Notes: generated from the sequence alone by a model not told the origin. DNA of 64,000 bases from Euryarchaeota archaeon UBA202 (GCA_002502685.1 DAQA01000029.1:4957-68956), one strand, 5' to 3'. Shown: positions 10,148 through 42,659, counted from the first letter of the stretch. Program-made: numbers and translations.

Positions 10148-11803
10148 ATGAGAAAAGAATGCATTGCTGTTCTTGTACTATTAATCATAATGGGGAATTT
10201 TTTTCATTCTTTCTTTATAAATTCTACTGCCTTGGATGCAAAAAATGTAAAAGGGAATCCTTATGATAATAACTTGTTTAATCAAACTGATATACCTACT
10301 TGGACAATTGGTGATACCTGGACCTATGAATCATCAGTTTTTTTTGAAGGGGAAAACGGCTCCTTTGATGGTTATATCGAAGATCTGGTGCAAACTGTTG
10401 TAAAACTAGTGAACCTTATGCAAAATGAAACCATCCCTTTTTTTGTGGTAAATCTAAGTGGTAATATTAGTGGTGAGTTGGCATATGGAATTATAACAGG
10501 TGATGTGGAAGGGTCAATACAGGGTGAACTTATTGTTAGGTTATCTGATCTTGCAATAATAAGGACAGAAATCAAATCCTGGGGTGAGATTGATACTTTT
10601 TTATTGACCTTTGACTATGGATTAAACAGTACATTACTGTTTCAACCTCCTCTGGAAAATTATGATTTTCCCCTTAAATTAGAAGACAACTGGGAAGTTT
10701 TTTCCCATGTTACATCGAAGGGGAGTTTCTATATCGAGGGCCTTATCAATGAATCACTCTCCGGTGATTCCTTAATGGGTGGATTTATGGAATTTATCAA
10801 TATACAAAATATAAGTGTTCCTGCGGGAATCTTTGAAAGCTGTCAATTAACAGCTCTTAACAATGAATCTTTTGATTATTGGTATTCCCCATTAGTAAAA
10901 AATTCTGTTAAGTCTGTGATAAATATGTCCAGTGATAATTCCACAGTAAACCTAGAGATGAATCTTTCCTCTTATTCCTTAATAAATCAACAAATAAACA
11001 TTACCCAACAGTTCACGCCACCAAGTGTGTACGCAAATGAATATGCAAACATTACAGGAGAGGTTAGAAACACGACTACCGGTGATGCCATTCCTAATGC
11101 ATCCGTTTTCTTACGCCTGCCATGTAACAATCAGGTGTGGAATGTCACCACAAATAATCTTGGTTATTATCACACAATGATTATGGCACCACTCATACAT
11201 GATAACACACCGTCAAATGATGATATCGGATCAGATGGTATCATTGCTTGGACTTCAGGGATTTATGGTGATGGCTGTAGAATAACAACATTGACCATAA
11301 AGGGGATAAACTACACATTTTCTCTCACTGAGGAGTGGAATTTAATTTCGATTCCAACAGAAAATATATGGACTGCGGAAACCCTGGGACAAAATATTAG
11401 TGGCTGTACCGTGGTGTCCATATTTTATGGAAACAACCAGACGTTTATATCCCATGTGGTGGGATCACCCCACGATGATTTTCCCATTGTAGATGGCGTG
11501 GGGTATTTCATGTATGTAACCAATGACAGCAACCTTTCCATGAGGAATTTACCCCTCAATAATATCAATATAACAATTCACCCTGAGTGGAACCTTATTG
11601 GCTGGTATCATGACTATGTTACCACGGCGGAGTCCCTGGGGGCTGCCATTGCTAATTGTACCGTGGTTTCCATGTTTGATGGGGTCAGTAAGAATTTTAC
11701 CACGCATGTGGTGGGGACACCCCATGATGATTTCACTATTGAAACCGGTATGGGTCTTTTTATCTATGCCACTGAAACAAGTATTTGGCAGGGTGAAGGG
11801 TAA
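10148..11803 (+). CDS. Secreted or surface glycoprotein-like protein carrying an internal tandem duplication of a roughly 70-aa C-terminal domain.
   Basis: Signal peptide MRKECIAVLVLLIIMG. Dense NxS/T sequons. Tandem units EWNLISIPTEN...CTVVSIFYGNNQTFISHVVGSPHDDFPIVDGVGYFMYV and EWNLIGWYHDY...CTVVSMFDGVSKNFTTHVVGTPHDDFTIETGMGLFIYA. Confidence 0.5.
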   Translation: MRKECIAVLVLLIIMGNFFHSFFINSTALDAKNVKGNPYDNNLFNQTDIPTWTIGDTWTYESSVFFEGENGSFDGYIEDLVQTVVKLVNLMQNETIPFFVVNLSGNISGELAYGIITGDVEGSIQGELIVRLSDLAIIRTEIKSWGEIDTFLLTFDYGLNSTLLFQPPLENYDFPLKLEDNWEVFSHVTSKGSFYIEGLINESLSGDSLMGGFMEFINIQNISVPAGIFESCQLTALNNESFDYWYSPLVKNSVKSVINMSSDNSTVNLEMNLSSYSLINQQINITQQFTPPSVYANEYANITGEVRNTTTGDAIPNASVFLRLPCNNQVWNVTTNNLGYYHTMIMAPLIHDNTPSNDDIGSDGIIAWTSGIYGDGCRITTLTIKGINYTFSLTEEWNLISIPTENIWTAETLGQNISGCTVVSIFYGNNQTFISHVVGSPHDDFPIVDGVGYFMYVTNDSNLSMRNLPLNNINITIHPEWNLIGWYHDYVTTAESLGAAIANCTVVSMFDGVSKNFTTHVVGTPHDDFTIETGMGLFIYATETSIWQGEG

Positions 11804-15530: not shown

Positions 15531-16997
15531 ATGAATTATAAAGGCAAAGCACTAACTATTGCAGGGTCTGATTCTGGAGGAGGAGCAGGTATACAAGCTG
15601 ATTTAAAAACCTTTCACTCCTTTGGCATCTTTGGGATGTCAGTACTAACCTCCGTAACGGCACAAAATACTTTGGGTGTACATGCCATCTATGACCTTCC
15701 CGCTAGCATCATTGCCGCCCAGATTGATGCAGTCATGGAAGATATTGAGGTTGATGCTGTAAAGACAGGGATGATCTCCACTACAGAGATAATAGAGACG
15801 ATTGTGGACAGAATAAAAAAATATGAGATAAACCAGCTGATAGTAGATCCTGTCATGGTGGCTAAAAGTGGTGATCGGCTCCTCAGGAAGGATGCAAAAA
15901 CATCACTTGTAAAGAATCTGTTGCCTCTGTCTTTCCTGATCACTCCCAATGTACCCGAGGCGGAAATAATCAGCGGCACCAAAATCGTAAGTATGGAAGA
16001 TGCCAAGAAAGCAGCCAAGATCATCCAGGCACTAGGACCTACTTTTGTGCTTCTAAAAGGAGGTCATCTCTATGAAGAAAACGCCATTGATATCTTGTTT
16101 GACGGAAATACATATAAATATTTTAAAGCGGAGAGAATTGATACAGCAAACACACACGGAACAGGTTGTACATTATCTGCCTCTATCACCGCTTGTTTAT
16201 CCAAGGGAATGAATGTCCATGATGCCATCAAGGTTGCAAAGGATTATATTACTCGAGCCATACAATATGCCCCTGATAATATTGGGAAAGGAAGTGGGCC
16301 TCTTTATCACAAGATAAAACCACTTGAAATATCTGCTTTTGGAGAAGCAGCTGCGGACTTTGATGTCTGGTTTGACAAAAACAAAATTATTTTCGAATCA
16401 GAGCTCCTTGCCGAAAAACAACTACTCCCTAATCCTGAAAATACCGTGAGCATAGGAGTGGGAAGCGGCCTGTTTGCTTCTCAAATAGGCATCAAATATG
16501 GTGTTGAGCCAGCAGAAGATATGGCCAAACTAGCACGAAAAAGAGGAATCAAAGTGAAAACAGGAATCGCAGAAGAAGTACCTTATCCTGATAAGCAGTT
16601 TGATACAGTACTGCTCAGCACGGTGTTGAGCTATGTAAAGGATGCCCAAAAAGCTGTCAATGAAGCATATCGGATTCTGAAGCCGGGAGGTCATGTTGTC
16701 ATTTCTTTTTTAGCTGGTGAAGGATCCTATGCCATGCTCTATGAACTTGCGCATCTCCGGGGTAGGCATGATTCTGAAATATCGCCGCCGCATCCCTATC
16801 CTCTGCCTTTTATCAGAGGGGCAAACTGGTTGACAACAGATCGAGTTACTGCTCTCTTGCAGAATGCTGGTTTCACTGACTTGTGCTATGTGCAAACCCT
16901 GCGTCGTCATCCGAAATACTCCAATGAAAAAGTAGAAACACCTGTAGAAGGTTATAAAGAGGGTGATTTTATTGTTGTTCAGGGGAAGAAACCGTGA
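15531..16997 (+). CDS. thiD: Hydroxymethylpyrimidine/phosphomethylpyrimidine kinase (ThiD) fused to a C-terminal class I SAM-dependent methyltransferase domain (Methyltransf_11-like).
   Basis: N-terminal ALTIAGSDSGGGAGIQADLKTF plus a ribokinase-fold ThiD body. C-terminal motif I VSIGVGSGLFA, acidic EPAED, FDTVLLSTVL and the post-I region YRILKPGGHVVISF. Confidence 0.7.
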   Translation: MNYKGKALTIAGSDSGGGAGIQADLKTFHSFGIFGMSVLTSVTAQNTLGVHAIYDLPASIIAAQIDAVMEDIEVDAVKTGMISTTEIIETIVDRIKKYEINQLIVDPVMVAKSGDRLLRKDAKTSLVKNLLPLSFLITPNVPEAEIISGTKIVSMEDAKKAAKIIQALGPTFVLLKGGHLYEENAIDILFDGNTYKYFKAERIDTANTHGTGCTLSASITACLSKGMNVHDAIKVAKDYITRAIQYAPDNIGKGSGPLYHKIKPLEISAFGEAAADFDVWFDKNKIIFESELLAEKQLLPNPENTVSIGVGSGLFASQIGIKYGVEPAEDMAKLARKRGIKVKTGIAEEVPYPDKQFDTVLLSTVLSYVKDAQKAVNEAYRILKPGGHVVISFLAGEGSYAMLYELAHLRGRHDSEISPPHPYPLPFIRGANWLTTDRVTALLQNAGFTDLCYVQTLRRHPKYSNEKVETPVEGYKEGDFIVVQGKKP

Positions 16998-17653
16998 AGG
17001 TGACTGATTGCCTTAGAAGGGATGCTGACGTCATATGGCAGCATCTTGTTAGGCATCCTTTTGTAGTTGAATTATACAGTGGTGATTTGCCCCTGGATAA
17101 GTTTAAATTCTATATTCTTCATGACTATTACTATCTTACCACGGCGATGAAAAATTTTAGTCTCTTGGCTGCCAAAGCCCCTACAGTAGAGGATCTGAGA
17201 GATATCCTTGATATACTCCGTTTGGAGGCAGAGAGTGAATACGAAGGATACAAAAAATTTCTGTATCGCCTTGGATATTCGATACCGGAAGCTGTAAAAC
17301 AAGAACCCATTCCAATTAGTATTTCCTATGGCAGTTTTCTTCTTTCAACAAGCACTCTGAAATCATATCCGGAGGCTATAACCGCGGTGCTTCCTTGCTT
17401 TTGGTCCTATGCCGAAATTGCGGATTATCATGGTGATAAGCTACATGACAATAAAAACCAGTTGTACACAGATTGGGCCAAAGTTTATGGAACGGATTCC
17501 TATCGGGATTTGGTTGGAAAGATTAAACAATTGGTGAACCGTGTTGATGAAACCTGTCCTTATGATAAACTCTTGAGGATATTTACCCAAGCAAGCAGAT
17601 ATGAATACTTGTTTTGGAATGCAGTATATACCCAAGAGCAGTGGCCTATATAA
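16994..17653 (+). CDS. tenA: TenA-family thiaminase II / aminopyrimidine aminohydrolase.
   Basis: DKFKFYILHDYYYL and YAEIA... match the TenA/PqqC haem-oxygenase-like fold. GTG start overlaps the thiD stop (coupled). Confidence 0.65.
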   Translation: MKVTDCLRRDADVIWQHLVRHPFVVELYSGDLPLDKFKFYILHDYYYLTTAMKNFSLLAAKAPTVEDLRDILDILRLEAESEYEGYKKFLYRLGYSIPEAVKQEPIPISISYGSFLLSTSTLKSYPEAITAVLPCFWSYAEIADYHGDKLHDNKNQLYTDWAKVYGTDSYRDLVGKIKQLVNRVDETCPYDKLLRIFTQASRYEYLFWNAVYTQEQWPI

Positions 17654-17865: not shown

Positions 17866-19551
17866 GTGCTCTCTAATGCATCACCAGGGATTATGATAAA
17901 TGATACAAAAAAGAAGGGGTGGTGTTTACTTGTCATTATTTCTTTGTTACTGGGGACAATGATAAGTTATGTTGGTGGAAATACTGTTTCTACATCCTTT
18001 ATTCTTGATGATTACGACCCATTAGTTAACATTTGTGTTACCCTAATGATTAAGGCAATATGTTCTCTAGAGAGCAATGATACTTCTTCCTCAGACTTTT
18101 ATGTTAAGGCAGGTATTAATAATGAAAGCTTCACCAGCCCGATATGGCATAATAAAGACTATGTCTATCCAGATTGGCATGCCACGGTGGACGTTCCTGA
18201 TGAAGTTGAATATGTAAACATAACAATTGAATTATGGGACCACAATGAGGGAAGAGATATCCTGTGCGATATTAATGGTAATCTTGGAAACCCTCTTAAT
18301 TACCGGCATGTAAACCTTGTCTACAGTATCAAAACAGGATGTTGGGCAGGAGAGGATCACCTCGGTGACATGAGTGGATATGGCCGCTTAAATGGCTGTG
18401 GCGACGGAACTATCTACAATACAGATAGAGATTGTGAATTATGGTTTTCCCTATACCAAAATGATTACGGCAACGACGGATTATCCTATTGGATGGAAAT
18501 CATGGATTATGGAACAAATCCTTCCATTGATAATACAGGGAAGGATTATGATGAGGATGGAATCCCCATAGAGTGGGAACATAAATGGGGATTTAATCCT
18601 GTTTCCTGGGATGATCACATGCATCTTGATAGTGATAATGACAGTCTTACAAACACTGAAGAATATCTAACCCGGCGTTTTGGATCAGATCCTTTTAGGC
18701 GTGATTTGTTTTTGGAGCTTGATTTTATGAAAAATGAAAACAATCGCAGTGTAAATATTGTTTCACAAGATGCACTAGAACTTTTAAAAAACCCCTTCCA
18801 TAGACGAGATATACTCTTTTTTATTATGATCGATGGGTTTTTTCCCTTTGATGATTTTACTGACCAAGAAGCACTCCTGGATATTTATCAAACATTTTTC
18901 CTCACTGATGAGGAAAACATGTGGAAAAGAAGTGTTTTTCATTATGGCATCTTTGCTTATGATTGCATTCCCACAGGCTATTCATATGCTGGAGATGGAC
19001 CAGTTTTTTGGGGATATGTCCCTGGCACCAATGGATTTATTGTCTCACAGACACAGATGGAAAAATATAATAGGTTACGTCCTGATTTAACCCTGGATTA
19101 TTTCCATGCATCAGTAATCATGCACGAAATAGGGCATCATTTTGGTATTAGATTTGGTAATCCCTATGGATGTGATAACCATTTTGGTAAGTATCCCTGG
19201 CAATTAAGCTACTGGATTTTTGGCACCTATAAAAGTATCATGAACTATAGATACACCTATCAAATCCTTGATTACTCAGACGGTTCACATGGAAAAAGAG
19301 ATTTTGATGATTGGGGTTACATGAATTTAAGCTATTTTGAAAAAAATACAAGTACCTGCACCTATGGTGATCAGTCACTAAAACTAAAGAACACCATCCA
19401 AGAGAACATTAGAAGTGATGATATACCCTCTAGACAAGAGCCAATCAAGAAATACCTCGAACGGGAAATCATTGCAAAGACCCTTGAAACAATACGTACA
19501 GGATTAGACGAACAAAAAACTACTAAGCATATTGACCCAGCGTATCACTGA
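17866..19551 (+). CDS. Secreted zinc metallopeptidase with an HExxH motif (likely start at M10, 17893).
   Basis: Signal/TM KKKGWCLLVIISLLLGTMISYVGG. Zinc site VIMHEIGHHFGIRFGNPYGCDNHFG. Asp-rich N-terminal region. Confidence 0.5.
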   Translation: MLSNASPGIMINDTKKKGWCLLVIISLLLGTMISYVGGNTVSTSFILDDYDPLVNICVTLMIKAICSLESNDTSSSDFYVKAGINNESFTSPIWHNKDYVYPDWHATVDVPDEVEYVNITIELWDHNEGRDILCDINGNLGNPLNYRHVNLVYSIKTGCWAGEDHLGDMSGYGRLNGCGDGTIYNTDRDCELWFSLYQNDYGNDGLSYWMEIMDYGTNPSIDNTGKDYDEDGIPIEWEHKWGFNPVSWDDHMHLDSDNDSLTNTEEYLTRRFGSDPFRRDLFLELDFMKNENNRSVNIVSQDALELLKNPFHRRDILFFIMIDGFFPFDDFTDQEALLDIYQTFFLTDEENMWKRSVFHYGIFAYDCIPTGYSYAGDGPVFWGYVPGTNGFIVSQTQMEKYNRLRPDLTLDYFHASVIMHEIGHHFGIRFGNPYGCDNHFGKYPWQLSYWIFGTYKSIMNYRYTYQILDYSDGSHGKRDFDDWGYMNLSYFEKNTSTCTYGDQSLKLKNTIQENIRSDDIPSRQEPIKKYLEREIIAKTLETIRTGLDEQKTTKHIDPAYH

Positions 19552-19655: not shown

Positions 19656-20201
19656 ATGGGTGAGAAAATCCTTCTAGATAGTGAAATCTTTAAGGCGTTA
19701 GCTTCTCAAACCCGTTTAGAAATTTTAAAAGAGCTGGATGAACGAAAGAAAACAGTGACCGAACTGTCACGGATCATGGACCTCAATAAGGCCACCATTT
19801 ATGAACACCTTAACATCCTCCATATGGTGGGCTTGGTGTCAAAGATAGACTCATCAAACAAATGGGTGTACTATAAACTCACCTGGAGAGGCACAGATCT
19901 TCTCCACCCTGAAAAAAAAAGAATAGCTATCATTCTCTCCCTTGCTCTTTCCTTCCTCATCACAGGAATAATATCTTCCCTGGCATACATGAGGCAAGCT
20001 GCACAAAGTTACACCAACCTGGAATCACTTAAAACACCACTTGACAGTTATCCACTCAGCTCTTCCATCCTCCCCGGTATTAATAATCAGTATCTGGTGA
20101 TTGGCATATTCATGTTTTCTCTCTTTTGTCTACTCTCCCTATCCAGCCTATGGCTATGGAAAACCAGGAAGTCACTTATACTACAAAGCCTAAACAGATA
20201 G
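19656..20201 (+). CDS. ArsR-family winged-HTH transcription regulator with C-terminal transmembrane helices (membrane-tethered).
   Basis: LASQTRLEILKELDERKKTVTELSRIMDLNKATIYEHLNILHMVGLV is an ArsR/SmtB HTH. The C-terminal half holds two hydrophobic helices. Confidence 0.6.
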   Translation: MGEKILLDSEIFKALASQTRLEILKELDERKKTVTELSRIMDLNKATIYEHLNILHMVGLVSKIDSSNKWVYYKLTWRGTDLLHPEKKRIAIILSLALSFLITGIISSLAYMRQAAQSYTNLESLKTPLDSYPLSSSILPGINNQYLVIGIFMFSLFCLLSLSSLWLWKTRKSLILQSLNR

Positions 20202-20251: not shown

Positions 20252-23200
20252 CTAAGAGGATGATGTTATATCTACAGGTGGCGTCTCAGCAGTGATAGAG
20301 GGATTATACATATCATATGCCTTTACTCCCTGGATGGTTCCCTTAATGGGCTCGTTTGCTTCAAGCTGGTAATCAAAATGTACCCATTCCCCCCGTGCAA
20401 GACTTTCAATATATACCACTGCCTGTCTTCCCCTTATCTCAAAATTATCAATCGTATCATTGCCCAATAATGCACTAAAATCTGTAGAAACAAAGGAGAA
20501 ACCCACTGGAGCCCGAAGATCAATAAGAACCATGCGGGCACTCTCCGCGCTTCCATTATACATTAAGTCCACATGGGCCCAGAGCATATCAGATACTTTA
20601 ATTGATGTGGAATCATAGCTTACATTGATAATTAGTTCACGTGGTTTTTCTAGTGACACCAAATCCCAGGGGAGATATTGTTCAGAAAAGATTTGATAAA
20701 GGATGCTCCCATTTCCCTGTGCAGTAATCTCTATGGTGGCAACATCAGAAAGATAGGGACGTAAATCAATCAGGTATGTAACATCCTTGTTTTCGTCTGT
20801 CAGATCCAAAATGGCCACCGGTATATTATTGGCATAAATGTTGACCCGCATATCCTCGATTTCACCTGTTCCCTGTCCATTGAGAGCCTGTAAAGCAACA
20901 ACTGTATCCTGGGTGGATGAAAACCCTCCCATTTGATTTCTATGGTTCAAAAGATAACTGACAGCCCCTTTGATTATTCCTTCAGATCCGCCATGCTTTT
21001 GAAGCGCCATAATAGCATACGCAGTTGTTTCAATGGTATAGGTGCTCATTCCCCAAAATCGCGCTGTTTCAGTGTTTGAATACATATTATTTTCTGTTTC
21101 CCAATACATCGTTCCGTTGTCTTCATTTCGTAGCAAGAGTAGTTGACTGCAAATCCTGTCCTGCACACTCCTCTCCCCATTGGCGTCCTCTAGAACAATA
21201 AGTGCCAGGGCAAGGGTATAGGGATCATTCCAATGCTCATCGATATTTTCTTTAATGTACCCTAACGATTTTTTAATATGACTATCACTTTCATATCCAC
21301 TGTAGAGAAGTGATCGGGTGATATATGCCGTGGTCGCCACCTTTTTCATTTTAAGAATCGGATTAGTTGTTTCATATAATCCCCATTCAGGAAACCTATA
21401 GGATCCATCACTCATCTGTTGGTTGATGAGCCAGTTTTGCATGTCAGGGATAATTTTGTCATCAATGGTGAATCCTGTATTCTTGGCATCCTGAAATGTG
21501 AGAAGGCCCCATGAGGTTAACCAGGGATGTGGACTCTCCTCATGGGGGAACCAGACAATACCCCGTCCATCCTTATCCCGGACAAGATACATAAATTCAT
21601 GTTGTATCCCCTGGGTGACCATGGTTTCACTTTCAAAGAGTTGATCGGTTGTGATCCCGTCTTTTTTTAAGAGATTTTGATAGGCAAGGATATCAATGGC
21701 AAGCAAGGACATGGATTGTTCTCCGCATCCTGAAACAAAATTAAGAAATCCCTCGGCGCCATCTAGTATCACAGATTCCATTCCCCCCTGGATTTTGATG
21801 AAGGCGTTTTCACTGTTGGATATGCGTTCAGATGACAGGGGTATGATATGGGTCACTGTTTGGTTGTCTCTTAATTCACCATTTTCAATTTGTGTAATTG
21901 CTTTTCCATCCGGGTCTATCCTTATTTGTTTCACTATGGCATCGCTGTCTTCATTGGAGAGGGCGGTTATGGTAATATTATGGCTGCCGACACTGATGGG
22001 TCGAATAGTAAAAGCGACACCAGTGACACTATTTGGATGTATGGTAAGTGACTGCTTGCGTCTAGAGAGAAGATCATACCATTCGTCTTGTTCAATCTCC
22101 ACTGTCACTGTACTTGTTGTGTTGCCATAATTGTACACCAGGATATTTAGGGGGAACTCGTCATTCCTGATTGCTGCCACGGGGATATCGGGCTCAACAA
22201 AAAATTGTTTAAAGACCCGTATTTCCTGGTTTCCTACACCGATTTGTGCATCCATTGTGGAGGCAATGGCTTCAATATTCCAGGTGGTAATTGAATCCGG
22301 GGTGATTAGGGTGATATTTGCATTGCCCTGTTCATCTGTTATAATGAGGGGTTTCCAGTACCATGTCTCGGGAAAGAAATGTCTTACACGTTCTGGGGAA
22401 GTATCTTGTGCGCCATTACCCAATAAAATCGAATCCTTTACGAGGGCATCTTCCTCCCACCGACCCGTTATATTTACAAAAATATTTCCTCCTGGCCCAT
22501 CATTTCTATCTACTAGTCCAATATCACCTCCCATCCCGTCTTCCGTATCACTTGGTAAGGCTTGGTTCATTACCATGAACATACCGACACCACAAATACA
22601 AAGACCCAGGGTTGCCAGGGTGGCAAACATTTTTGTGTTCCCAAACACTTTACCGGCAAAATAAGTGGTTATTACAACCGCACAGACAATAAAGGCAATA
22701 AGCAGGGTCATCCAATAGACAAATATACTTTTTTCCTTGAATAATTGGGCATCCGCAAGGTATTTATCCGGGTTGCTAAGGACCATGTTTTCGTCTGTTT
22801 TAAAACTACTTTGGTCCACAAGATAGGGTGTTTCTCCTAAGGAGAGGATCCTTGTGGTATTAGTAAAGACATATTCATGAATCTCATATGCGGGAGTGAT
22901 AAATTCTTCCTCCAACTCAAAGTAAAGTTTTTCTAGACCCATAAAACGCTGGCTGACTTCAAAAACAGACTTGTCCACAATACTAATACCCATGGCGGCA
23001 ACCACGGGGTGTGATCCATCATCTACCTTGAACTGCAAGGTTATATTTTCGTGTGGTTCATACTCCTCCTGGGCAGTGTACACCTGCACATTTAAGGTAT
23101 CTGGTGATATTACCCCTATAACCGCGGTATCCCGTGCCACATTCAAATCTGGTTGTATCTTATAGGCTCGTATCTGGGTGAGAGGTATCATGTCAGGTGT

Positions 23201-24670
23201 CGCAATAATACTAAAATTTCCCTTCCCTTCACTGAGGGCGAGTCTGCCCGTGGTTGTCACAAAGCCGTTTGCTATCACGTCATAATAGACCCAATCGGTT
23301 GTACTGTTCCCTGTATAATATACTTCGCATTGGATATCATCACCCGCCAGATAATTTTCTTTATTGGGAATGACTTTAATACCTCGTGATCCAGTGAGGT
23401 CATGTTTGGAGACAATTCTTACATCATTTTTTATTACTTCAACCATAAGGGTGGTTTGATTGGTAAACAAAAAACTAAAATTGGCAATACCCCGTTCATT
23501 GGTCATTTTGCTTGTCATGTTTTTTCCATCAAGGAATACAGTCACCTGTGCATTATCCACAGCTACCCCGCAGGGATCCCGTACAATCACATAATACTTA
23601 GACAGGGTGTCTATGATATTGTTATCCCCAAGTGTGGTGATTACTAGTGAGTTATTTGCAAGGGGAATGATATGGGTCTCATTTTCCATATGTCCCCCGG
23701 TGTCCTCTACAGTGATTTGTAACTGAATTATCCCATTCTGGTTCCATACTGGAAGAGTCACAGCATAATTAACGGGTGGTAAAGTAAACTTAAATTCCCC
23801 ATTTGTTAGTTTTCCTTTCACCCCCGCCACATTTCCCCATTTCCCCAGATAGGTAGAAGCATTAATTTGGACAGTACCCTCCACCGCTTTACCAAAAAAG
23901 TATCTACAGGAAACAGCACCGGTGATGGATTCATTAATAAGATACCACGGTTTCATATCTTCAACCTCGATACTAAACTTGGGAAGAACATATTTTTCAA
24001 CCATAACCACCGTCTGGGTTTCCTCGCCACCTACCCGTGCCGTTATTTTATAATTACCCATGGGTAATTGATCAGAAAGAAAAAAATCATACTCTGTGAT
24101 CCCATACTCATTATCAGGTTGCAAAAATTCCTTTGCCATAAGGTTTCCCTCAGGATCCGCTATCGATAACTCTACTATGTCATCTGAGGCAACGGGATCA
24201 ATATTTTCATAGGTAAGCATCCTGATATGGATTGTTTGACCGGGCTGATAGAGGGGCTTATCCGTAGAAAGAAGAATCCGATGGATATCTACAATAGAGA
24301 TATCCTTCCTGATCTTTTCATCTCCAACCGTGACCACAAGTTTTCCCTCTCCCGTAATATTGGGAACAGTAAAGAGAGGTTTCACATATCCACCGTCATC
24401 CATCTTTCCCTCATAAAGATTAAATGTTTCATCCCCAAGGATAACATCAACAGTAACCTTTTCATCTGATGGAACACCCTTGATATCATGGGCAAGGACA
24501 AGGAGGGATGACTGAGAATTACTAAACAATTTCGAAGGCATATTCACCGTCACTAGATTTTTACTTGAAAGATAGAGGTCATCAGCAGTATAAGCCATGG
24601 CCCCGGAAGCTACAATGATACATCCAATGGCAATAATAAGCCATGTCTTTTTCCCAAGCATATTTTTCAT
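20252..24670 (-). CDS. Alpha-2-macroglobulin-family thioester-containing protein. The ORF extends to 24757; the likely start is MKNML at 24670.
   Basis: Canonical thioester motif FVSGCGEQSMSLL and TED-domain NWLINQQMSDGSY (QQxDGS). Signal/TM IIAIGCIIVASGAMA. About 1,470 aa with long MG-like beta regions. Two hydrophobic helices in mid-protein (LLIAFIVCAVVITTYFAG / LATLGLCICGVGMFMVM). Confidence 0.75.
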   Translation of the reverse strand: MKNMLGKKTWLIIAIGCIIVASGAMAYTADDLYLSSKNLVTVNMPSKLFSNSQSSLLVLAHDIKGVPSDEKVTVDVILGDETFNLYEGKMDDGGYVKPLFTVPNITGEGKLVVTVGDEKIRKDISIVDIHRILLSTDKPLYQPGQTIHIRMLTYENIDPVASDDIVELSIADPEGNLMAKEFLQPDNEYGITEYDFFLSDQLPMGNYKITARVGGEETQTVVMVEKYVLPKFSIEVEDMKPWYLINESITGAVSCRYFFGKAVEGTVQINASTYLGKWGNVAGVKGKLTNGEFKFTLPPVNYAVTLPVWNQNGIIQLQITVEDTGGHMENETHIIPLANNSLVITTLGDNNIIDTLSKYYVIVRDPCGVAVDNAQVTVFLDGKNMTSKMTNERGIANFSFLFTNQTTLMVEVIKNDVRIVSKHDLTGSRGIKVIPNKENYLAGDDIQCEVYYTGNSTTDWVYYDVIANGFVTTTGRLALSEGKGNFSIIATPDMIPLTQIRAYKIQPDLNVARDTAVIGVISPDTLNVQVYTAQEEYEPHENITLQFKVDDGSHPVVAAMGISIVDKSVFEVSQRFMGLEKLYFELEEEFITPAYEIHEYVFTNTTRILSLGETPYLVDQSSFKTDENMVLSNPDKYLADAQLFKEKSIFVYWMTLLIAFIVCAVVITTYFAGKVFGNTKMFATLATLGLCICGVGMFMVMNQALPSDTEDGMGGDIGLVDRNDGPGGNIFVNITGRWEEDALVKDSILLGNGAQDTSPERVRHFFPETWYWKPLIITDEQGNANITLITPDSITTWNIEAIASTMDAQIGVGNQEIRVFKQFFVEPDIPVAAIRNDEFPLNILVYNYGNTTSTVTVEIEQDEWYDLLSRRKQSLTIHPNSVTGVAFTIRPISVGSHNITITALSNEDSDAIVKQIRIDPDGKAITQIENGELRDNQTVTHIIPLSSERISNSENAFIKIQGGMESVILDGAEGFLNFVSGCGEQSMSLLAIDILAYQNLLKKDGITTDQLFESETMVTQGIQHEFMYLVRDKDGRGIVWFPHEESPHPWLTSWGLLTFQDAKNTGFTIDDKIIPDMQNWLINQQMSDGSYRFPEWGLYETTNPILKMKKVATTAYITRSLLYSGYESDSHIKKSLGYIKENIDEHWNDPYTLALALIVLEDANGERSVQDRICSQLLLLRNEDNGTMYWETENNMYSNTETARFWGMSTYTIETTAYAIMALQKHGGSEGIIKGAVSYLLNHRNQMGGFSSTQDTVVALQALNGQGTGEIEDMRVNIYANNIPVAILDLTDENKDVTYLIDLRPYLSDVATIEITAQGNGSILYQIFSEQYLPWDLVSLEKPRELIINVSYDSTSIKVSDMLWAHVDLMYNGSAESARMVLIDLRAPVGFSFVSTDFSALLGNDTIDNFEIRGRQAVVYIESLARGEWVHFDYQLEANEPIKGTIQGVKAYDMYNPSITAETPPVDITSSS

Positions 24671-24926
24671 ACAAACATTATCTGATTTTAAATAATAAAT
24701 ACTCTTATAACGTTTGGTGACCACCAAACCTCCTTTGCGCAAACAACTTGTCACCAACTATTCCGGCAGCATCCCATTTTTTTTTTCTATCATACGCGCG
24801 CTATTCTCCCCTAGCAATGGTGCTGTTTATCCTTCTCCACCGTTGTAGAAAAATGGTTCATCTAGATTGTACAAGGGTACCAAAAACCACACAAAGATCA
24901 TTATGCCAAATATTAATAACCCGTGA

Positions 24927-25859
24927 TTGAATATATCGCATATCTTCATGGACTCATTCCAAAAACATCTCAAAAAAGATAGTTTTCCTATAACATTTGA
25001 GCCAGATTCACCCAAGGGGACACAACTCACAAATTATCTTACCCTTGACATCCCCTCAAAAATAGCTGCGTTTTGTCTTTACAATAATCCCCGGGGTGAA
25101 CCTCGCCTGGATCCCTTTGTCTATGGAAAAAAATTAAGGGACATCTACAAAAAGGATATTATCGCAAATATACGTATACAGGATTACAGTATCCCCCTTT
25201 TCCAAAGCATTCTTTGGGGAGGATACAATCTGGGCATAAAAAACCTCTTAATGGTCACCGGTGACTATCACCATCACAGTCCCTTTCTCCTCGATGTAAC
25301 CGAGGGACTCACTGGCATCACTGCCTATCTGAATCAGGGCTATTTTATGCCCGAGTTAAAGGAAACAGCACAAAGATACCACAACCGTTATCTTGATACA
25401 AAAAAAGTTTTTTCACCCAAAACATGTGAGGGAAAAACTTCCTTTTTTGTTGGATCAGCCCTGGTGGCAACACGAAGAAAAGAAAAAGAGATATACCACA
25501 AAAAAATACAAGCAGGAAGCCAGTTTTTTATGACCCAACTCACCTATACACCCACAGATATCATTAACTTCATGGAAACCATAAATCCCACAAAGCCAAT
25601 ACTCGTGGGGTCAGGCCCCATTACCTCCCTAAAAACAATACGTTTTTTCAAGGAACAATTAAATATTCCGGGTCTGTCTCCTCGCCTCATCAACCGGCTA
25701 AAACAATCAAAGGACATGGGTAAAGAATCAGTGCACATCTGTACTGAAATGTATCATACCCTCAGAGATTTTGCCCGAGAAAATAATTACCTCCTAGGTG
25801 CACATGTGATGTCCATTCGAAAACCCCAATTAGCCCTGGAAATAATCAAGGAAATCTAA
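24927..25859 (+). CDS. Hypothetical protein, possibly a methylenetetrahydrofolate reductase (MetF)-like TIM barrel. First gene of the MtrAH/MetE operon.
   Basis: FPITFEPDSPKG loosely resembles the MetF SFEFFPPK motif. Its stop is 4 nt before the MtrA-like start. Confidence 0.3.
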   Translation: MNISHIFMDSFQKHLKKDSFPITFEPDSPKGTQLTNYLTLDIPSKIAAFCLYNNPRGEPRLDPFVYGKKLRDIYKKDIIANIRIQDYSIPLFQSILWGGYNLGIKNLLMVTGDYHHHSPFLLDVTEGLTGITAYLNQGYFMPELKETAQRYHNRYLDTKKVFSPKTCEGKTSFFVGSALVATRRKEKEIYHKKIQAGSQFFMTQLTYTPTDIINFMETINPTKPILVGSGPITSLKTIRFFKEQLNIPGLSPRLINRLKQSKDMGKESVHICTEMYHTLRDFARENNYLLGAHVMSIRKPQLALEIIKEI

Positions 25860-25862
25860 GTC

Positions 25863-26429
25863 ATGACAACAAAATATTATCCCTGGCCTGGCGATTTCAC
25901 CCCGTGTCACCCCACCGGTTCTGTGGCAGCAGTATTATTATCCACCGACTATATACCCTCACAAACTGTTGCTATTTATGGACACGTTAAAACAGAAAAC
26001 ATTGGCCTAGAAAAAATCATGGCCAATGTCATCTCCAATCCCCATATCCGCTACCTCGTACTGATTGGAAAAGATATCCGTGGTCATTTACCCGGCTCAT
26101 CACTCAAGGCACTCCACCAACATGGAATTGATCATACCAATAAAATCAATACCGCCCCCGGCGCAATCCCCTATATCGAAAACCTCTCAGAGGATGCTGT
26201 TAAAAGATTTCAAAACCAAGTAGTTATCATTGACCTCATGAATATTGCGGATAAGAACCGTCTTGATAATAAAATAAATGAACTTATCAACACGTCCCCT
26301 TCCTGCTACGGCGACCCCTTCATCGCACTGCGCCTGACGGTCATCTACAGTAAGCCAAGGGATGATAAAAGGGCATTACATTCAAAAATTATTATAGATT
26401 GGAGAGGAAAGATAAAAAAAAGGAGATAA
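25863..26429 (+). CDS. MtrA-like corrinoid-binding protein: soluble homologue of tetrahydromethanopterin S-methyltransferase subunit A, lacking the C-terminal TM anchor.
   Basis: VKTENIGLEKIMANVISNPHIRYLVLIGKDIRGHLPGSSLKALHQHGID closely matches the conserved MtrA core ([22 protein letters not shown]...GHITGQ...AL..NG). Confidence 0.65.
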   Translation: MTTKYYPWPGDFTPCHPTGSVAAVLLSTDYIPSQTVAIYGHVKTENIGLEKIMANVISNPHIRYLVLIGKDIRGHLPGSSLKALHQHGIDHTNKINTAPGAIPYIENLSEDAVKRFQNQVVIIDLMNIADKNRLDNKINELINTSPSCYGDPFIALRLTVIYSKPRDDKRALHSKIIIDWRGKIKKRR

Positions 26430-26430
26430 C

Positions 26431-27327
26431 ATGTTTTCTTTCACCCAGGAACAAAAAGTATTTCGTATCGGTGGCATCTCTATTGGAGGGCAACCCGGTG
26501 AACACCCCACGGTTCTTTTTGGCGGAGTATTTTTTAAAGGGGCACCCCGCCTTAAAGAAGCAAAAAAAAATCTTGATGACATGTTGGCACTAAGTCACAC
26601 CACACATATACCGGCTATCCCTGATTTTTTTATTCGATATGAAAAACATATCCCTCTTATTATTGATTTTATCAATTCTGCTCTCCCCTCCCACCATCCC
26701 TTCTCTGTTGACATCATTGATCCCCACCTGAAACCACAAGTTCTCAGCCACCTTGCAAAACATGATCTCCTCCACCGTACCATCTATAACTCGATACATA
26801 TAGGTATCACTGAAAAGGAAAGAAAAACCCTGCATAAATATCCCCCTGCCATGGCAATCATTTTAGCATTCAACCCCAAAGATAACTCCCCGGATGGAAG
26901 ACTTGAAATACTAGAAAATAGCGCCCATCTTCTCAATAAAGGTCTTCTAGAAATATCTAGAGAAGCAGGTATTGAAAAACTGTTAATTGACACTGCGGCA
27001 ATGGCACCAGGGGAAAATAGCGGCGCAGCCATTGCTGCCATCCCGGTAATCAAGGAAGAATATGGTCTACCTGTTGGCTGTGCCATCCATAACGTGGTGG
27101 AAAAATCTCATTGGCTTACATCCTTTAAGAAATCCATTGTTGATGCATCATCAAATACCACTATCCCCCTGTTTGGAGGCGATTATGTGCTTTATGGGCC
27201 ACTTACGCTCTCTTCGTCTGTGTTTCCCTTGATTGCCTGGGAGGATATTCTTATTTCAGAATATGTCGAGAACTACTTTGGGGTAAAACCCTGCGATGGG
27301 CATCCGCGAAAAAGGTTTTTTCCATGA
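26431..27327 (+). CDS. MtrH-like methyl-tetrahydropterin:corrinoid methyltransferase (pterin-binding TIM barrel).
   Basis: N-terminus MFSFTQEQKVFRIGGISIGGQPGEHPTVLFGGVFF parallels MtrH (FGGQPGEYPT). About 300 aa. Confidence 0.6.
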   Translation: MFSFTQEQKVFRIGGISIGGQPGEHPTVLFGGVFFKGAPRLKEAKKNLDDMLALSHTTHIPAIPDFFIRYEKHIPLIIDFINSALPSHHPFSVDIIDPHLKPQVLSHLAKHDLLHRTIYNSIHIGITEKERKTLHKYPPAMAIILAFNPKDNSPDGRLEILENSAHLLNKGLLEISREAGIEKLLIDTAAMAPGENSGAAIAAIPVIKEEYGLPVGCAIHNVVEKSHWLTSFKKSIVDASSNTTIPLFGGDYVLYGPLTLSSSVFPLIAWEDILISEYVENYFGVKPCDGHPRKRFFP

Positions 27328-28217
27328 TTCCTCAAACCACCATTATCGGTTCCTATCCTCTTTTTCCCAATAGAGGAAAAATTATGCAGAATTATTTTCA
27401 TCACTATACGTGTGATTCATGGAAACCACTCATTCAACAAGTAATAGATGATCTCAATACAGCAAGGATTGATATTCTCTCTGACGGACAAACACGTGAT
27501 CCTTTTGTCCAGTTATTTGCCCGAAAACTAAAAGGATGCCGCCTTAGAAACCGAGTTGAAATTATAGATGACATAGGGTACACCAAACCAATAACAGTAG
27601 ATGATCAAAGATATATCCAGTCCTTTATCCCCCAAGAAAAGCAATTAAAGGGTGTTATTACGGGTCCCTATACCCTGGCCAAATCATGCATTGATCTATA
27701 TTACCATGATGAGCAAGAGGTGGCTTTTTCTTTTGCCCATGCACTTAGAAAAGAAGTGGAGGAAATGCAATCATCAGTTGATATTTTGGGGATTGATGAA
27801 CCCTTTTTTTCTGTCTCTTTTCCTGAATATGCCCGAGATCTGATAGGTATCCTTACACATAACATCTCACTTCCTACCCTTCTGCACGTCTGTGGAAATG
27901 TGTCATCCGTTGTCTCCAAGATTTTTGATTTACCCGTTGACACTCTTTCTCATGAATTTAAGGCACGCCCTGATCTTTTTGACGTACTCCAAGATTTTTC
28001 TTTTCCCCAATCATTGTGTATCGGTTGTGTTCGATCGGATGATACACGTATCGAGCCTGTTCAAGAAATTACTTCCCATATCCAAAATGCTCTGGATCTT
28101 TTTGGTGAAAAGATACAGTATCTCTCTCCTGATTGTGGTCAACGGTCACTCCCCCGTGATGTAGCCTATCATAAGCTTGATAATCTTGTACAGGCTAAGG
28201 AGGCATTGAATGGATGA
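27324..28217 (+). CDS. metE: Core methionine synthase: MetE C-terminal (catalytic) domain only, a corrinoid/methylcobalamin:homocysteine methyltransferase.
   Basis: IIGSYPLFPNRG, LHVCGNVSSVV and a C-terminal SPDCGQRSLPRD (Zn-binding Cys region of MetE). About 300 aa, as in short archaeal MetE. Overlaps the upstream stop. Confidence 0.6.
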   Translation: MIPQTTIIGSYPLFPNRGKIMQNYFHHYTCDSWKPLIQQVIDDLNTARIDILSDGQTRDPFVQLFARKLKGCRLRNRVEIIDDIGYTKPITVDDQRYIQSFIPQEKQLKGVITGPYTLAKSCIDLYYHDEQEVAFSFAHALRKEVEEMQSSVDILGIDEPFFSVSFPEYARDLIGILTHNISLPTLLHVCGNVSSVVSKIFDLPVDTLSHEFKARPDLFDVLQDFSFPQSLCIGCVRSDDTRIEPVQEITSHIQNALDLFGEKIQYLSPDCGQRSLPRDVAYHKLDNLVQAKEALNG

Positions 28218-28656: not shown

Positions 28657-30264
28657 TCAAGTAAATAATGCCATTAAGTGAGGTATTATGATAAGTGAAA
28701 GAATTAAGGCTAATACCGCTAGTGAGATGAGAAAGGTTATTTTTCCTGCTATTTTTTCTTCTTGTTCCTTTTTAATATTTTTCTTTATCTTTTTTAATAA
28801 TATTGCGATCCCATCCTTTAAAAGATAACCCCCATCAAGGGGTATAGCGGGAAGGGCATTAAATGTTCCCAAGGCAAAATTTAACCAGAAAATCCAATAG
28901 ATGCTGTCACCCAGTCCCCAAAACAGTGATTTGGGTAATATGGACAGGGGTCCTGTTATTTTATACAGATTGCTCATCTCATCTGGAAAGGGTGACAGTC
29001 CCTGAAAGGGGAGAGTTATATAGGTGAAAAATCCGGATAGAGACGATGCAGGATGTACTAAAGCATCTATTAATGCTTCAGGGGAGGAAACCATGATGCC
29101 CAAAGGGAGAATATTGATTCCCAAAAAGCCCACATTAGTGTATTCTTCCTTGTTTTTGCCAGGGTAATATTTCTCATAATACTCGTATTTGTCACCCAGT
29201 GTTACTGTTTTGTTATAAAAAGTATAATTCTTTGTTTCCTGGTGATAACTAACCCCTTCGATATATATGGTTTTTCCCGCCCTAGTTGTATTCATGATGG
29301 TATTAAACTCTTCTTCATTTGTTACAAGTGTTCCATTGATCGTTTCTATAATGTCTCCCACTCTTATCCCCGCTTTATCAGCGGGGTATCCTTCTGCAAC
29401 AACAGCGATTACCAATCCACCCATAATGGTTTGTGTCTGAAAATTATTATCATGATAAAAAGTGAAGGTATAGTTTTTTGTGGGTTGCAGGCTAGCGGCT
29501 ACTTTGTCAAAATCATCAACATCTTTTATGGATTGTTCATCAATAGAGGTGATTAATGTCCAGGGTTCAATATCCAAAACATCGGCGGGACTGTTTTCAA
29601 TGATGCCCACCGCAAGGGTTCCATTATGGTGTGGTGACACGCTTGCCATGAAACCTAAGGAAAACACAAGGGCGCAGATAAACGCTAGAACCAAATTGGA
29701 TGACGGCCCCATTGCAAAAATACGCATCCGTTTCTTTTTGTGAATTTTCTCCATCTGTTTTTCATCGGGTTCCACAAATGCCCCAAGGGGTATAATCATA
29801 TACATGATCCCCAGGGCTTTAATCTTTATGTTTCCCACCATGGCCAGAATTCCATGTGAAAATTCATGAATAATGATGGCAATGATGATTCCCACAATTA
29901 AATAGGGAATAGATGAAAGGGGTATGAGGGGGTTAACACCAGGGAGAAGAAGCAACATTTGTGGTGTTGGTGCCTGCTCAGCTGGAATGCTAAACGAGAG
30001 GGTCATTTCCCATATAAGAAGTGCCATCATGGCAAACATGGCCATAAAGCAGAGGAAGACACCGAAATTTGCAAAATGTGTCCAAAAGAGTTTTGGCTGT
30101 GACAAAAATTTAATAATCTTTTTCCCCCGGGGTGTCCTCCACATCAGGACAGGACCCCACAAAGAAAGGTTGTATTTTTTTAACATCCCCCGGGTTTTTA
30201 CAATATAAAGTAAGAGAAACCAAAAAGATAGGATTATCAATAGCAGGGGCAGCAACCCAGGCAT
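28657..30264 (-). CDS. Site-2 protease (M50 family) intramembrane zinc metalloprotease with PDZ domain(s).
   Basis: HExxH in TM helix IIAIIIHEFSHGILA. Second motif ALPAIPLDGGYLLKDG (LDGG). Multiple TM helices. The central soluble region has PDZ-like G-hydrophobic-G loops. Confidence 0.75.
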   Translation of the reverse strand: MPGLLPLLLIILSFWFLLLYIVKTRGMLKKYNLSLWGPVLMWRTPRGKKIIKFLSQPKLFWTHFANFGVFLCFMAMFAMMALLIWEMTLSFSIPAEQAPTPQMLLLLPGVNPLIPLSSIPYLIVGIIIAIIIHEFSHGILAMVGNIKIKALGIMYMIIPLGAFVEPDEKQMEKIHKKKRMRIFAMGPSSNLVLAFICALVFSLGFMASVSPHHNGTLAVGIIENSPADVLDIEPWTLITSIDEQSIKDVDDFDKVAASLQPTKNYTFTFYHDNNFQTQTIMGGLVIAVVAEGYPADKAGIRVGDIIETINGTLVTNEEEFNTIMNTTRAGKTIYIEGVSYHQETKNYTFYNKTVTLGDKYEYYEKYYPGKNKEEYTNVGFLGINILPLGIMVSSPEALIDALVHPASSLSGFFTYITLPFQGLSPFPDEMSNLYKITGPLSILPKSLFWGLGDSIYWIFWLNFALGTFNALPAIPLDGGYLLKDGIAILLKKIKKNIKKEQEEKIAGKITFLISLAVLALILSLIIIPHLMALFT

Positions 30265-39139: not shown

Positions 39140-39155
39140 GCATAATCAGGGCACC

Positions 39156-40352: not shown

Positions 40353-40448
40353 CCCTTATTTTTTCTTGTGCCCCCTCCACGTTTTCTCTTTTCTTCCTTT
40401 TATGTTATCATAAATACTGATGTGGCTGTAGTAACACACTGCTGCAGA

Positions 40449-40910: not shown

Positions 40911-41073
40911 GTAATACCTCTCTTTTCTTTCTATGGCATACGTACCTTATTTTTTTTTCTTATGTTTTCCCTTGTTTTGATGCAGGGAGGCTTCCTCATG
41001 ATCTTTGGGATGATATATGCCAAGGGTAAAGGTAATAAATTATTATATTTATACCATCCCTAACCGTGGTATC

Positions 41074-42653: not shown

Positions 42654-42659
42654 TTTTCG

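Follow-up and report, generated by a model that had tools for sequence, protein, structure and literature searches.

An archaeal thioester-bearing macroglobulin with a predicted transmembrane hairpin at the bait-region site and a conserved membrane-anchored winged-helix neighbour

The type I bacterial alpha-2-macroglobulins (A2Ms) ECAM (YfhM) of Escherichia coli and Salmonella A2M are inner-membrane lipoproteins and provide precedents for tethered A2Ms; they are thioester-bearing, monomeric traps that are held by an N-terminal lipid anchor and thought to protect the envelope. MagD of Pseudomonas aeruginosa, a type II protein, is not known to carry a thioester or to span the membrane. In the abstract of a study on the mag operon, a conserved thioester is ascribed to the type I bacterial proteins and MagD is described as working with co-encoded inner-membrane proteins, among which regulator genes are not mentioned (PMC5764988). 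A further precedent for a membrane-tethered A2M is CD109, which carries a C-terminal GPI anchor on MG8, is released on activation, and acts by bait cleavage followed by conformational change and thioester conjugation (PMC12927315). Archaeal homologues were reported in 2021 by Makarova et al. and, like the protein described here, have MG/Ig domains, a thioester domain (TED), an intact CxEQ motif and usually a signal peptide. That survey names Halobacteria and Methanomicrobia, judges the Methanolobus proteins to be bacterial acquisitions, and makes no mention of Thermoplasmata, of mid-protein transmembrane (TM) helices or of a membrane-bound winged-helix (wHTH) partner (PMC8416519).

We analysed a 64,000-nucleotide stretch of DNA from Euryarchaeota archaeon UBA202 (the window), in which an earlier note, made from the sequence, had picked out an A2M-like protein of about 1,470 amino acids with GCGEQ and QQxDGS motifs. 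The maximal open reading frame (20252..24757, minus strand, as are all features of this protein given below) has a TTG start and encodes 1,501 residues. The ATG at 24670 is the likely start, with the open frame extending upstream to the TTG at 24757; the resulting coding sequence (20252..24670) specifies 1,472 residues, the length both of a 100% identical public database protein and of the called gene in locus L001. A basic MKNMLGKK sequence is followed by a hydrophobic segment (aa 8–30, 24581..24649) that may be a signal peptide or an uncleaved signal-anchor. A lipobox was considered at this end and rejected, the cysteine lying inside the hydrophobic stretch and not being conserved in relatives.

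An HMM search, one of the checks proposed in the earlier note, returned the A2M-family Pfam set in canonical order: MG2 (aa 132–216, 24023..24277, E = 2e-13), MG3 (aa 226–297, 23780..23995, 5.9e-10), A2M_BRD, spanning MG5 to the first half of MG6 (aa 431–571, 22958..23380, 2.5e-14), A2M (aa 769–858, 22097..22366, 6.1e-24), preceded by an invariant VRxxFPETWYW motif in the alignment, TED_complement (aa 969–1263, 20882..21766, 1.5e-40) and A2M_recep/MG8 (aa 1377–1462, 20285..20542, 2.4e-07). Apart from a weak MG4, all matches exceed the curated cut-offs, which takes the similarity far beyond a chance motif. Both motifs of the earlier note are present: GCGEQ (aa 981–985, 21716..21730) is clade-invariant, unchanged across 33 aligned relatives, and QQMSDGS (aa 1084–1090, 21401..21421) belongs to the alpha/alpha toroid of the TED. 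The protein is a bona fide alpha-macroglobulin/TEP thioester protein with a complete MG-BRD-A2M-CUB-TED-MG8 architecture. The Pfam scan gave no matches to the bMG domains (bMG3, bMG5, bMG6, bMG10), nor, at E ≤ 0.1, to ANATO or C345C/NTR. Hydropathy revealed no C-terminal hydrophobic tail, the protein ending in ...PPVDITSSS.

Among PDB sequences the best matches were the human proteins CD109 (3.5e-66), A2ML1 (4.7e-65) and A2M (5.6e-55). An AlphaFold2 (AF2) model (pLDDT 77) was searched with Foldseek and gave E-values of 1e-56 to 1e-48 against A2ML1, CD109, A2M, C5 and TEP1, with A2ML1 (2.9e-56) first and native CD109 (3.1e-54) second. Query-normalised TM-scores were 0.44–0.46 against native forms, 0.31–0.33 against most activated forms and 0.38 against one induced A2M chain, so that the modelled fold resembles native more closely than activated A2ML1, CD109 and A2M. 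Like CD109, this is a monomer-sized thioester protein that would be displayed on its own cell's membrane. It differs in the catalytic histidine, which in CD109 lies about 115 residues past the thioester: at the aligned position, occupied by Asp in C4A, the window protein has Tyr1099 (21374..21376) and no histidine, and this tyrosine is conserved in at least 90% of the clade. Overall, the fold of ECAM-type proteins can still be recognised (Foldseek, about 1e-42), but neither ECAM nor Salmonella A2M gave a PDB sequence match at E ≤ 1e-5, and the bMG domains and lipobox of that type are missing.

The earlier note had placed two hydrophobic helices where canonical A2Ms carry the bait region. Hydropathy, AF2 and alignment with human A2M all agree with that placement. 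Downstream of three short conserved helices (aa 568–602, 22865..22969, alignment and AF2; consensus SVFEL..RF.G.E..YF.LEE.F..PQYQI), which we infer to be the LNK/bait-region-domain helices, lie a juxtamembrane helical extension (aa 634–648) and TM helix 1 (aa 649–672, 22655..22726), a basic loop predicted to be cytoplasmic (GKVFGNTK, aa 673–680, 22631..22654), TM helix 2 (aa 681–701, 22568..22630) and an acidic, glycine-rich, disordered linker of variable length (aa 702–759, 22394..22567), the candidate bait region, which runs into the invariant FPETWYW strand. The hairpin thus falls between A2M_BRD (end, 571) and the A2M domain (start, 769). The TM helices were assigned from hydropathy, the positive-inside rule and the secondary structure predicted by AF2: the Kyte–Doolittle peaks of the two segments were 2.1–2.8, and AF2 placed helices at aa 634–674 and 680–704 (pLDDT 53–75), followed by a linker with pLDDT of about 25–30. 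At the bait-region position the segments are therefore predicted to be long helices, not the buried beta-strands that would have told against the earlier note. Residue 754 aligned with residue 723 of the human A2M precursor, so that the C-terminal end of the linker corresponds to the end of the human bait region.

The two-helix hairpin was common to all 75 thioester-bearing relatives examined, mainly from Thermoplasmatota genomes. Their connecting loops have a median length of 7 residues and contain on average 3.3 K/R vs 0.19 D/E, and the linkers after TM helix 2 are 52–161 residues long with 18% D/E and 14% Gly. Column identity was 0.16–0.23 in hairpin and linker vs 0.41–0.58 in the folded domains, a pattern that fits a generic anchor joined to a fast-evolving bait. 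At the hairpin site, thioester-less relatives, bacterial ones included, have about 4–11 hydrophobic segments, most often 6–8; Methanosarcinales-type proteins (YGCGEQNM, about 1,400 residues) have no hairpin. Anchoring in the bait-region domain differs from the MG8-borne GPI anchor of CD109 and the N-terminal lipid anchor of ECAM, and complement C3/C4/C5, which also have a C345C/NTR domain, carry ANATO at the MG6 insertion where the window protein has the hairpin. We found no description in the literature of the two-helix bait-site architecture or of the regulator pairing described below, though archaeal A2M homologues as such are known. Calling these homologues rare in Archaea, as the earlier note did, was an overstatement: the 80 loci kept here include about 70 archaeal species-level genomes, and CxEQ homologues had been reported before (PMC8416519).

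The gene next to the A2M stop codon encodes an ArsR/SmtB-type wHTH domain (HTH_5, aa 9–76) with two TM helices (aa 88–112 and 142–160; 19656..20201, plus strand); it is convergent and ends 51 nucleotides from that stop. The earlier note had seen this membrane-tethered ArsR neighbour but underrated it, for it turned out to be the sole conserved linkage. A membrane wHTH gene lies directly downstream of the A2M gene in 40/49 loci: 35 have a wHTH + zinc-ribbon protein with a polytopic membrane part (about 10 TM), five, the window included, have the convergent ArsR + 2-TM protein, and the remaining nine have neither family. Gaps between the A2M and regulator genes range from −154 to +288 nucleotides in most loci. 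Within the window's subclade the ArsR + 2-TM pairing is retained, and it is kept even where none of the other flanking genes is shared. In reverse look-ups, the wHTH–zinc-ribbon family adjoined an A2M gene in 3/3 cases and the ArsR + 2-TM family at 5/6 places, L093 being the exception. Both families are small (31 and 20 clusters) and seem confined to these archaea, and no HMM similarity was found between them. The window ArsR protein scored 49.7 bits against SdpR-type autorepressors, below the cut-off of 100. The conserved membrane-anchored wHTH neighbour is probably a dedicated regulator of the A2M system. A simple trap would not need a pairing this strongly conserved, which may point to a further role.

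The earlier note gave functional weight to a secreted-protease neighbourhood. The C25 (4781–6616 and 30886–32931), C1 (8689–9951) and M50+PDZ (28657–30264) peptidase genes are indeed present in the window, the first three with N-terminal signal-like hydrophobic segments and the last without one. The supposed secreted HExxH metallopeptidase (17866–19551) shows a HEIGH motif as well as a hydrophobic segment at its N-terminus, but its zincin/reprolysin score is sub-threshold (E = 0.012; 15.7 bits vs a cut-off of 22). When every window neighbour was searched by tblastn within ±10 kb of the 80 related loci, no C25, C1, M50, HExxH or MtrAH gene was found, and all of these were missing even from the relatives that share 81%, 52% and 50% identity. 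The neighbour survey that the earlier note had proposed thus removes the peptidase link and replaces it with the wHTH gene. Extracellular C25/C01 peptidases are in general numerous and expressed in sediment Thermoplasmatota (PMC6461988), and the local cluster is therefore more probably a matter of lifestyle than a dedicated module. The archaeal context is supported: the window contains MtrA/MtrH genes and a mevalonate/isoprenoid cluster of archaeal type (GHMP kinase, UbiD-like, AcnX, isopentenyl-phosphate-kinase-like, IDI2-like and polyprenyl synthetase), and every named close homologue carries a Thermoplasmata name. A PBP1c-type transglycosylase/transpeptidase, the neighbour of ECAM-type proteins, was found neither among the window neighbours nor as a recurring partner in the 80 loci.

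We propose, with no more than middling confidence, that the window protein is a cell-surface, membrane-integrated macroglobulin acting as a tethered protease trap. A surface trap remains the most economical function; that part of the earlier proposal stands, while the support it drew from neighbouring, unconserved peptidases does not. The N-terminus would be cytoplasmic or cleaved and MG1–MG6a extracellular; TM helix 1 would run inward and TM helix 2 outward, with the loop cytoplasmic and the linker and MG6b-MG7-CUB-TED-MG8 extracellular. In such a topology the two halves of the trap would lie on the membrane's outer surface and be pinned to it at the hinge. Disordered, variable and acidic, the candidate bait is where a bait region would be expected and is joined to the TM hairpin. 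As in A2M, ECAM and CD109, a protease would cut one of the variable, exposed stretches that flank the hairpin, whereupon the protein would rearrange and expose its thioester. Because the catalytic-histidine position holds a tyrosine, the thioester would react directly with protease lysines, and the protease would end up covalently fixed to the membrane of the very cell that carries the trap. Archaeal hosts of this type of protein have no peptidoglycan; given also the lack of a PBP1c partner and the secretion of cysteine peptidases by many of these archaea, the structures protected from own or foreign proteases would be the membrane and surface proteins. Since the peptidase neighbours are unconserved, they indicate no specific target protease. 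At most a few tens of residues would separate the bait from the bilayer, and large proteases may have difficulty reaching it.

The regulator pairing raises the tentative possibility, which could coexist with trapping, that the hairpin macroglobulin is an extracellular protease sensor and the membrane wHTH protein its transducer: bait cleavage or conformational change would alter the sequestration, or cause the proteolytic release, of the DNA-binding domain and so change transcription. The position of the wHTH gene in 40/49 loci, its retention where all other flanks differ, and the small, seemingly restricted partner families favour such coupling, as does the sub-cut-off similarity to SdpR-type proteins (49.7 bits vs 100). 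SdpR of Bacillus subtilis is regulated through membrane sequestration. Hairpin column identity of just 0.17–0.23 argues, however, against a specific helix–helix interface; the cytoplasmic loop has only about 7 residues, two unrelated families share the slot, 9/49 loci have neither, the homologue at L093 does not adjoin an A2M gene, and ordinary local transcriptional regulation would explain the adjacency equally well. That the two proteins form a two-component-like 'protease alarm', relaying membrane-proximal bait cleavage to the DNA-binding domain, we consider rather unlikely. If true, this would make a receptor of an A2M-family protein and, with the thioester-less multi-helix bacterial relatives, would establish membrane-integrated macroglobulins as a class not recognised before, changing the picture of how the CD109/A2M/complement lineage originated.

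It is quite unlikely that the thioester serves instead as a covalent adhesin or opsonin-like tag, resembling complement or the TEPs of insects and not a protease inhibitor, binding the cell or a shed C-terminal half to foreign surfaces, partner cells, viruses or detrital particles. The domains fit TEP1 and CD109 just as well, any covalent reaction of a membrane-fixed protein would tether its target to the cell, one subclade has beta-propeller surface proteins downstream, and immune or conflict roles have been put forward for archaeal homologues by Makarova et al. (PMC8416519). Tyr1099 tells against it, since without a catalytic histidine, reaction with hydroxyls on carbohydrate surfaces is disfavoured; ANATO and C345C domains are absent from the Pfam scan, and the neighbourhoods are not of a hypervariable or conflict type, with housekeeping flanks in many genomes. 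The comparison of C3/C4B with C4A/A2M is the established basis for histidine-dependent hydroxyl reactivity. Very improbable is a soluble, secreted macroglobulin in which the hydrophobic segments pack into a buried core or serve as an oligomerisation interface. The modest helix pLDDT (53–75) leaves room for it, but each segment has 21–24 consecutive apolar residues with Kyte–Doolittle means above 2 and is predicted as a long helix, not a strand; the K/R-rich connecting loop is universal, hydrophobicity alone and not sequence is conserved, and the roughly 4–11 segments at this site in thioester-less relatives are impossible as a soluble core.

The minus strand at window positions 20252-24757 is a single open frame of 1,501 codons when read from a TTG. 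Starting at the ATG at 24670 gives a protein of 1,472 aa, a length shared by P0001, a public protein of identical sequence, and by the corresponding gene call on an independent assembly. Pfam models matched above their curated cut-offs for MG2 (aa 132-216), MG3 (aa 226-297), A2M_BRD (aa 431-571), A2M (aa 769-858), TED_complement (aa 969-1263, E 1.5e-40) and A2M_recep (aa 1377-1462), with a weak match to MG4 between MG3 and A2M_BRD. The thioester motif GCGEQ was found at aa 981-985 and a QQMSDGS motif at aa 1084-1090. An ordered domain set with both motifs goes far past a chance motif, and the earlier observation of a thioester macroglobulin in an archaeon was therefore correct. The same Pfam scan returned no bMG models and no anaphylatoxin or C345C domain. 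Good independent evidence for an archaeal origin of the window comes from an archaeal-type mevalonate/isoprenoid cluster at 36941-45419, comprising a GHMP kinase, a UbiD-like decarboxylase, AcnX, an amino-acid-kinase-fold protein (isopentenyl phosphate kinase-like), an FMN-dependent IDI2-like protein and a polyprenyl synthetase. A scan for bacterial-type promoters and terminators, using bacterial models unsuited to archaea, gave counts in line with those of shuffles.

The nearest solved structures by sequence were human CD109 (3.5e-66), followed by A2ML1, A2M, C4, insect TEP1 and C3, while E. coli ECAM and Salmonella A2M fell short of 1e-5 in the same search; by sequence, ECAM is thus more distant from the archaeal protein than are human CD109, A2ML1 and A2M. 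With 32 homologues as input, AlphaFold2 modelled aa 273-1472 at mean pLDDT 77, covering the hairpin separately from MG1-MG3 and the N-terminal helix. In Foldseek this model matched A2ML1, CD109 in its native form, A2M of frog and human, C5 and TEP1 (E 1e-56 to 1e-48), with bacterial A2Ms ranking lower (about 1e-42). Query-normalised TM-scores were 0.44-0.46 for native forms against 0.31-0.33 for most activated forms, one induced A2M chain reaching 0.38. In the TED alignment, Tyr1099, at least 90% conserved in the clade, stands where CD109 has its catalytic His and C4A an Asp. The established chemistry of C3/C4B versus C4A/A2M is that a thioester without this His reacts directly with amines, as in protease-trapping A2Ms; by this analogy the missing His points to direct reaction with amines in the archaeal protein.

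In the textbook picture, alpha-macroglobulins are protease traps that are either soluble or lipid-tethered, and the prokaryotic members have been explained as guards of peptidoglycan synthesis, encoded beside PBP1c. In its predicted working, the archaeal protein is nearest to CD109 and the Gram-negative lipoprotein A2Ms, which are cell-tethered monomeric traps. Unlike CD109, however, it lacks the His and any GPI or C-terminal anchor; unlike the ECAM type, it lacks a lipobox, bMG domains and a PBP1c partner; and unlike complement, it lacks ANATO and C345C domains. With the defining features of each subgroup absent, it can safely be assigned only to the alpha-macroglobulin superfamily. It is a full, thioester-competent macroglobulin in wall-less or S-layer archaea without PBP1c.

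Two segments in the middle of the protein (aa 649-672 and 681-701) are strongly hydrophobic. Structure prediction returned helices rather than buried strands here (aa 634-674 and 680-704, with a five-residue turn between them), followed by pLDDT of about 25-30 up to residue 759; their placement relative to MG6/MG7 was judged by pLDDT, secondary structure and order along the sequence. Residue 754 aligns with residue 723 of the human A2M precursor, in which we take the bait region to be 690-728 (UniProt). On that basis the hairpin and trailing linker (aa 702-759) would fill the bait-region slot, between LNK-like helices (568-602) and an invariant VRxxFPETWYW motif, and the architecture proposed in the earlier note, hydrophobic helices at the bait-region position, holds. 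The membrane threading would sit at the hinge where proteases supposedly cut.

Among thioester-bearing relatives, 75/75 have two hydrophobic 18-mers upstream of FPETW. Their connecting loop (median 7 residues) averages 3.3 Lys/Arg and 0.19 Asp/Glu, a composition that would make it a textbook positive-inside cytoplasmic loop, and the linker after the second helix runs to 52-161 residues (18% acidic, 7% basic, 14% Gly). Per-column identity is 0.41-0.58 for the folded domains but 0.17-0.23 for the helices and 0.16 for the linker; the hairpin therefore retains hydrophobicity only, as a generic anchor would, and the linker evolves as a bait region does. At the N-terminus, a basic stretch and a hydrophobic segment lie next to a conserved VYNxDxxYL motif. 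Comparison of N-termini revealed no obvious small-x-small cleavage site in most relatives and no conserved Cys, and the segment may serve as a signal-anchor that stays uncleaved. Whether or not cleavage occurs, the two halves of the protein are both predicted to be extracellular.

Clustering of all flanking open reading frames identified a conserved element that the earlier note had overlooked, a membrane-bound regulator. Counts were made over the 49 hairpin-class loci whose downstream flank spans at least 1.5 kb. At 35 of these, a same-strand downstream gene of about 500-640 aa (wHTH-Zn-ribbon-polytopic) follows, usually 15-290 nt away and sometimes overlapping. In the window and its subclade (5/49) the neighbour is a convergent gene for an ArsR/HTH_5 protein that has two TM helices (ArsR-2TM; 19656-20201, plus strand, in the window), ending 2-66 nt from the A2M stop codon, and all other surroundings differ among these five loci. 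The two families have no detectable mutual homology, and the wHTH-Zn-ribbon-polytopic HMM had no match in a six-frame search of the 64 kb window; the window's lineage uses the unrelated ArsR-2TM gene in place of the other partner. The regulators form small families of 31 and 20 clusters, whose source names all belong to archaea (Thermoplasmata, Thermoplasmatota or Methanobacteriota). Starting from the regulators, look-ups at loci that are in part redundant reached an A2M neighbour in 3/3 cases for wHTH-Zn-ribbon and at 5/6 places for ArsR-2TM, the homologue at L093 not adjoining an A2M gene. Neither regulator is present at 9/49 loci, and at some of these a beta-propeller surface protein takes the place. 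One hairpin subclade has such a protein, with Beta_propel (PF09826), encoded downstream (L009:14790-18323, L018:3692-5473, L031:11191-12378), and L009 also carries a second A2M-family gene of 1,291 aa.

The window encodes secreted-looking peptidases of the C25 (two) and C1 families and a possible zincin, together with a site-2 protease of family M50. The earlier note had based a protease-trap function on this neighbourhood, a rationale that fails: tblastn of 26 window proteins against 80 loci carrying related A2M genes found no peptidase, and a conserved A2M-peptidase module was rejected. The matches were to A2M, to ArsR-2TM (2 loci) and to four housekeeping genes, the last isolated in L023, L054 and L072, and flanks differ in relatives at 81%, 52% and 50% identity. 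Sediment Thermoplasmatota generally encode and express C25/C01-type extracellular peptidases (PMC6461988). Given this and the lack of recurrence, the local cluster is best read as lifestyle background. The HExxH protein matched no family at curated cut-off, so that its label of metallopeptidase is a motif-level guess. Two further secreted-looking proteins are encoded between the C25 and C1 genes (7170-8480 and 10148-11803, both plus strand), one with thioredoxin-like and PKD domains and the other with a CarboxypepD_reg-like domain only. The only protease seen adjoining any related A2M gene is an HtrA-like Trypsin_2 plus PDZ protein, the upstream divergent gene of a hairpin A2M at a locus without either regulator (L003:8464-9402, minus strand).

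The reading we favour, with about even confidence, is a thioester protease trap stapled at its hinge to the outer face of the membrane. A superfamily member with an intact thioester, the protein has a helical hairpin with a basic loop, a disordered and variable linker at the bait position, and a conserved regulator neighbour. With both halves outside, a protease would cut the flanking variable segments, a conformational change would follow cleavage, the thioester would conjugate to lysine, and the captured protease would be kept on the cell. Such a trap would represent a new anchoring solution and likely self-protection for sediment archaea living by secreted peptidases.

That membrane-bound DNA-binding proteins are the conserved partners suggests that proteolysis outside the cell may be linked to gene regulation. 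The pairing supports a rival reading, protease-sensing signalling through the regulator, which is compatible with trapping. We consider signalling unlikely, however, as the hairpin is poorly conserved, its cytoplasmic loop is tiny and two unrelated regulators are used. A role as a covalent adhesin or opsonin is more doubtful still, the missing His arguing against it, and we think it very improbable that the hydrophobic helices lie anywhere other than in the membrane.

Of the 829 relatives that a word-indexed protein search gave at E <= 1e-10, the first 33 (identity 33-100%; coverage 98-100% in 30/33 by best BLASTP local alignment) all had GCGEQ and the hairpin, and those among them with a source name were Thermoplasmata or Methanobacteriota archaea. 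The feature is real, intact and conserved. The 80 loci were obtained by scanning a single genome for each GTDB species; about 50 of them are hairpin-class loci in Thermoplasmatota MAGs. In Methanosarcinales, Hadarchaeota and Micrarchaeota the scan also found a second class of archaeal protein (YGCGEQNM), which is about 1,400 aa long and lacks the hairpin. Its loci (L047, L060-L061, L063-L081) represent Methanolobus, Methanomethylovorans, Methanococcoides, ANME-2, Methanoperedens, Hadarchaeota and Micrarchaeota; a C-terminal hydrophobic segment replaces the hairpin in some members (L067, L069, L072, L077), and eight loci (e.g. L047, L060, L065, L070) share conserved genes, about 887 and 630 aa in length, close to A2M and usually downstream of it. 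Archaeal homologues with CxEQ have been described, with Halobacteria and Methanomicrobia named and no mention of Thermoplasmata, mid-protein TM helices or regulator pairing (Makarova et al., 2021; PMC8416519). A literature search of incomplete coverage found no description of membrane-inserted prokaryotic macroglobulins. Membrane-inserted relatives occur widely and open up an unexplored part of the superfamily, one that bears on how animal thioester immunity arose.

Searched against 1.84 billion representatives, a profile built on the insert gave 27 whole-profile matches at E <= 1e-30. Among 144 further representatives, a sample skewed by the hydrophobic search profile, 22 had hairpin and thioester, eight had the hairpin without thioester, and 36 were thioester-less with more than two hydrophobic helices at the hairpin site (about 3-11 by hydropathy, most often 6-8). 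In the polytopic thioester-less proteins (P0035, P0048, P0053, P0057, P0059, P0062, P0064, P0066, P0071, P0072, P0080, P0083, P0085, P0101, P0103, P0106-P0108, P0118 and 36 of P0123-P0266), the helices lie between the A2M_BRD and A2M domains, i.e. at the bait-region site; the few with source names are labelled Verrucomicrobiota, with one 'Woesearchaeota'. The polytopic inserts matched no Pfam family, and a comparison of those in bacterial relatives with the partner's membrane domain gave no evidence of homology, matches being at most 13 bits and attributable to composition. Many bacterial relatives carry PF08334 (type II secretion GspG/pseudopilin-like; one is annotated GspG) and others DUF4159 (PF13709), as fusions with A2M-like proteins (P0043, P0047, P0049, P0054, P0061, P0063, P0074 and others).

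Elsewhere in the window, MTHFR-like, MtrA, MtrH and MetE-like (Meth_synt_2) genes at 24927-28217 form a cluster with the look of a corrinoid/pterin methyl-transfer module. A gene for a pterin-binding DUF4346 protein comes after this cluster on the sister contig L001, and in the 81% relative (L082) the MTHFR-like gene likewise lies upstream of A2M. At 15531-16997 (plus strand), a fusion joins ThiD (phosphomethylpyrimidine kinase) to a class I SAM-methyltransferase domain, and TenA (16994-17653) comes next. A small protein with cohesin and type I dockerin domains is encoded at 60188-60916 (minus strand), with a DDE transposase nearby at 57572-58663.
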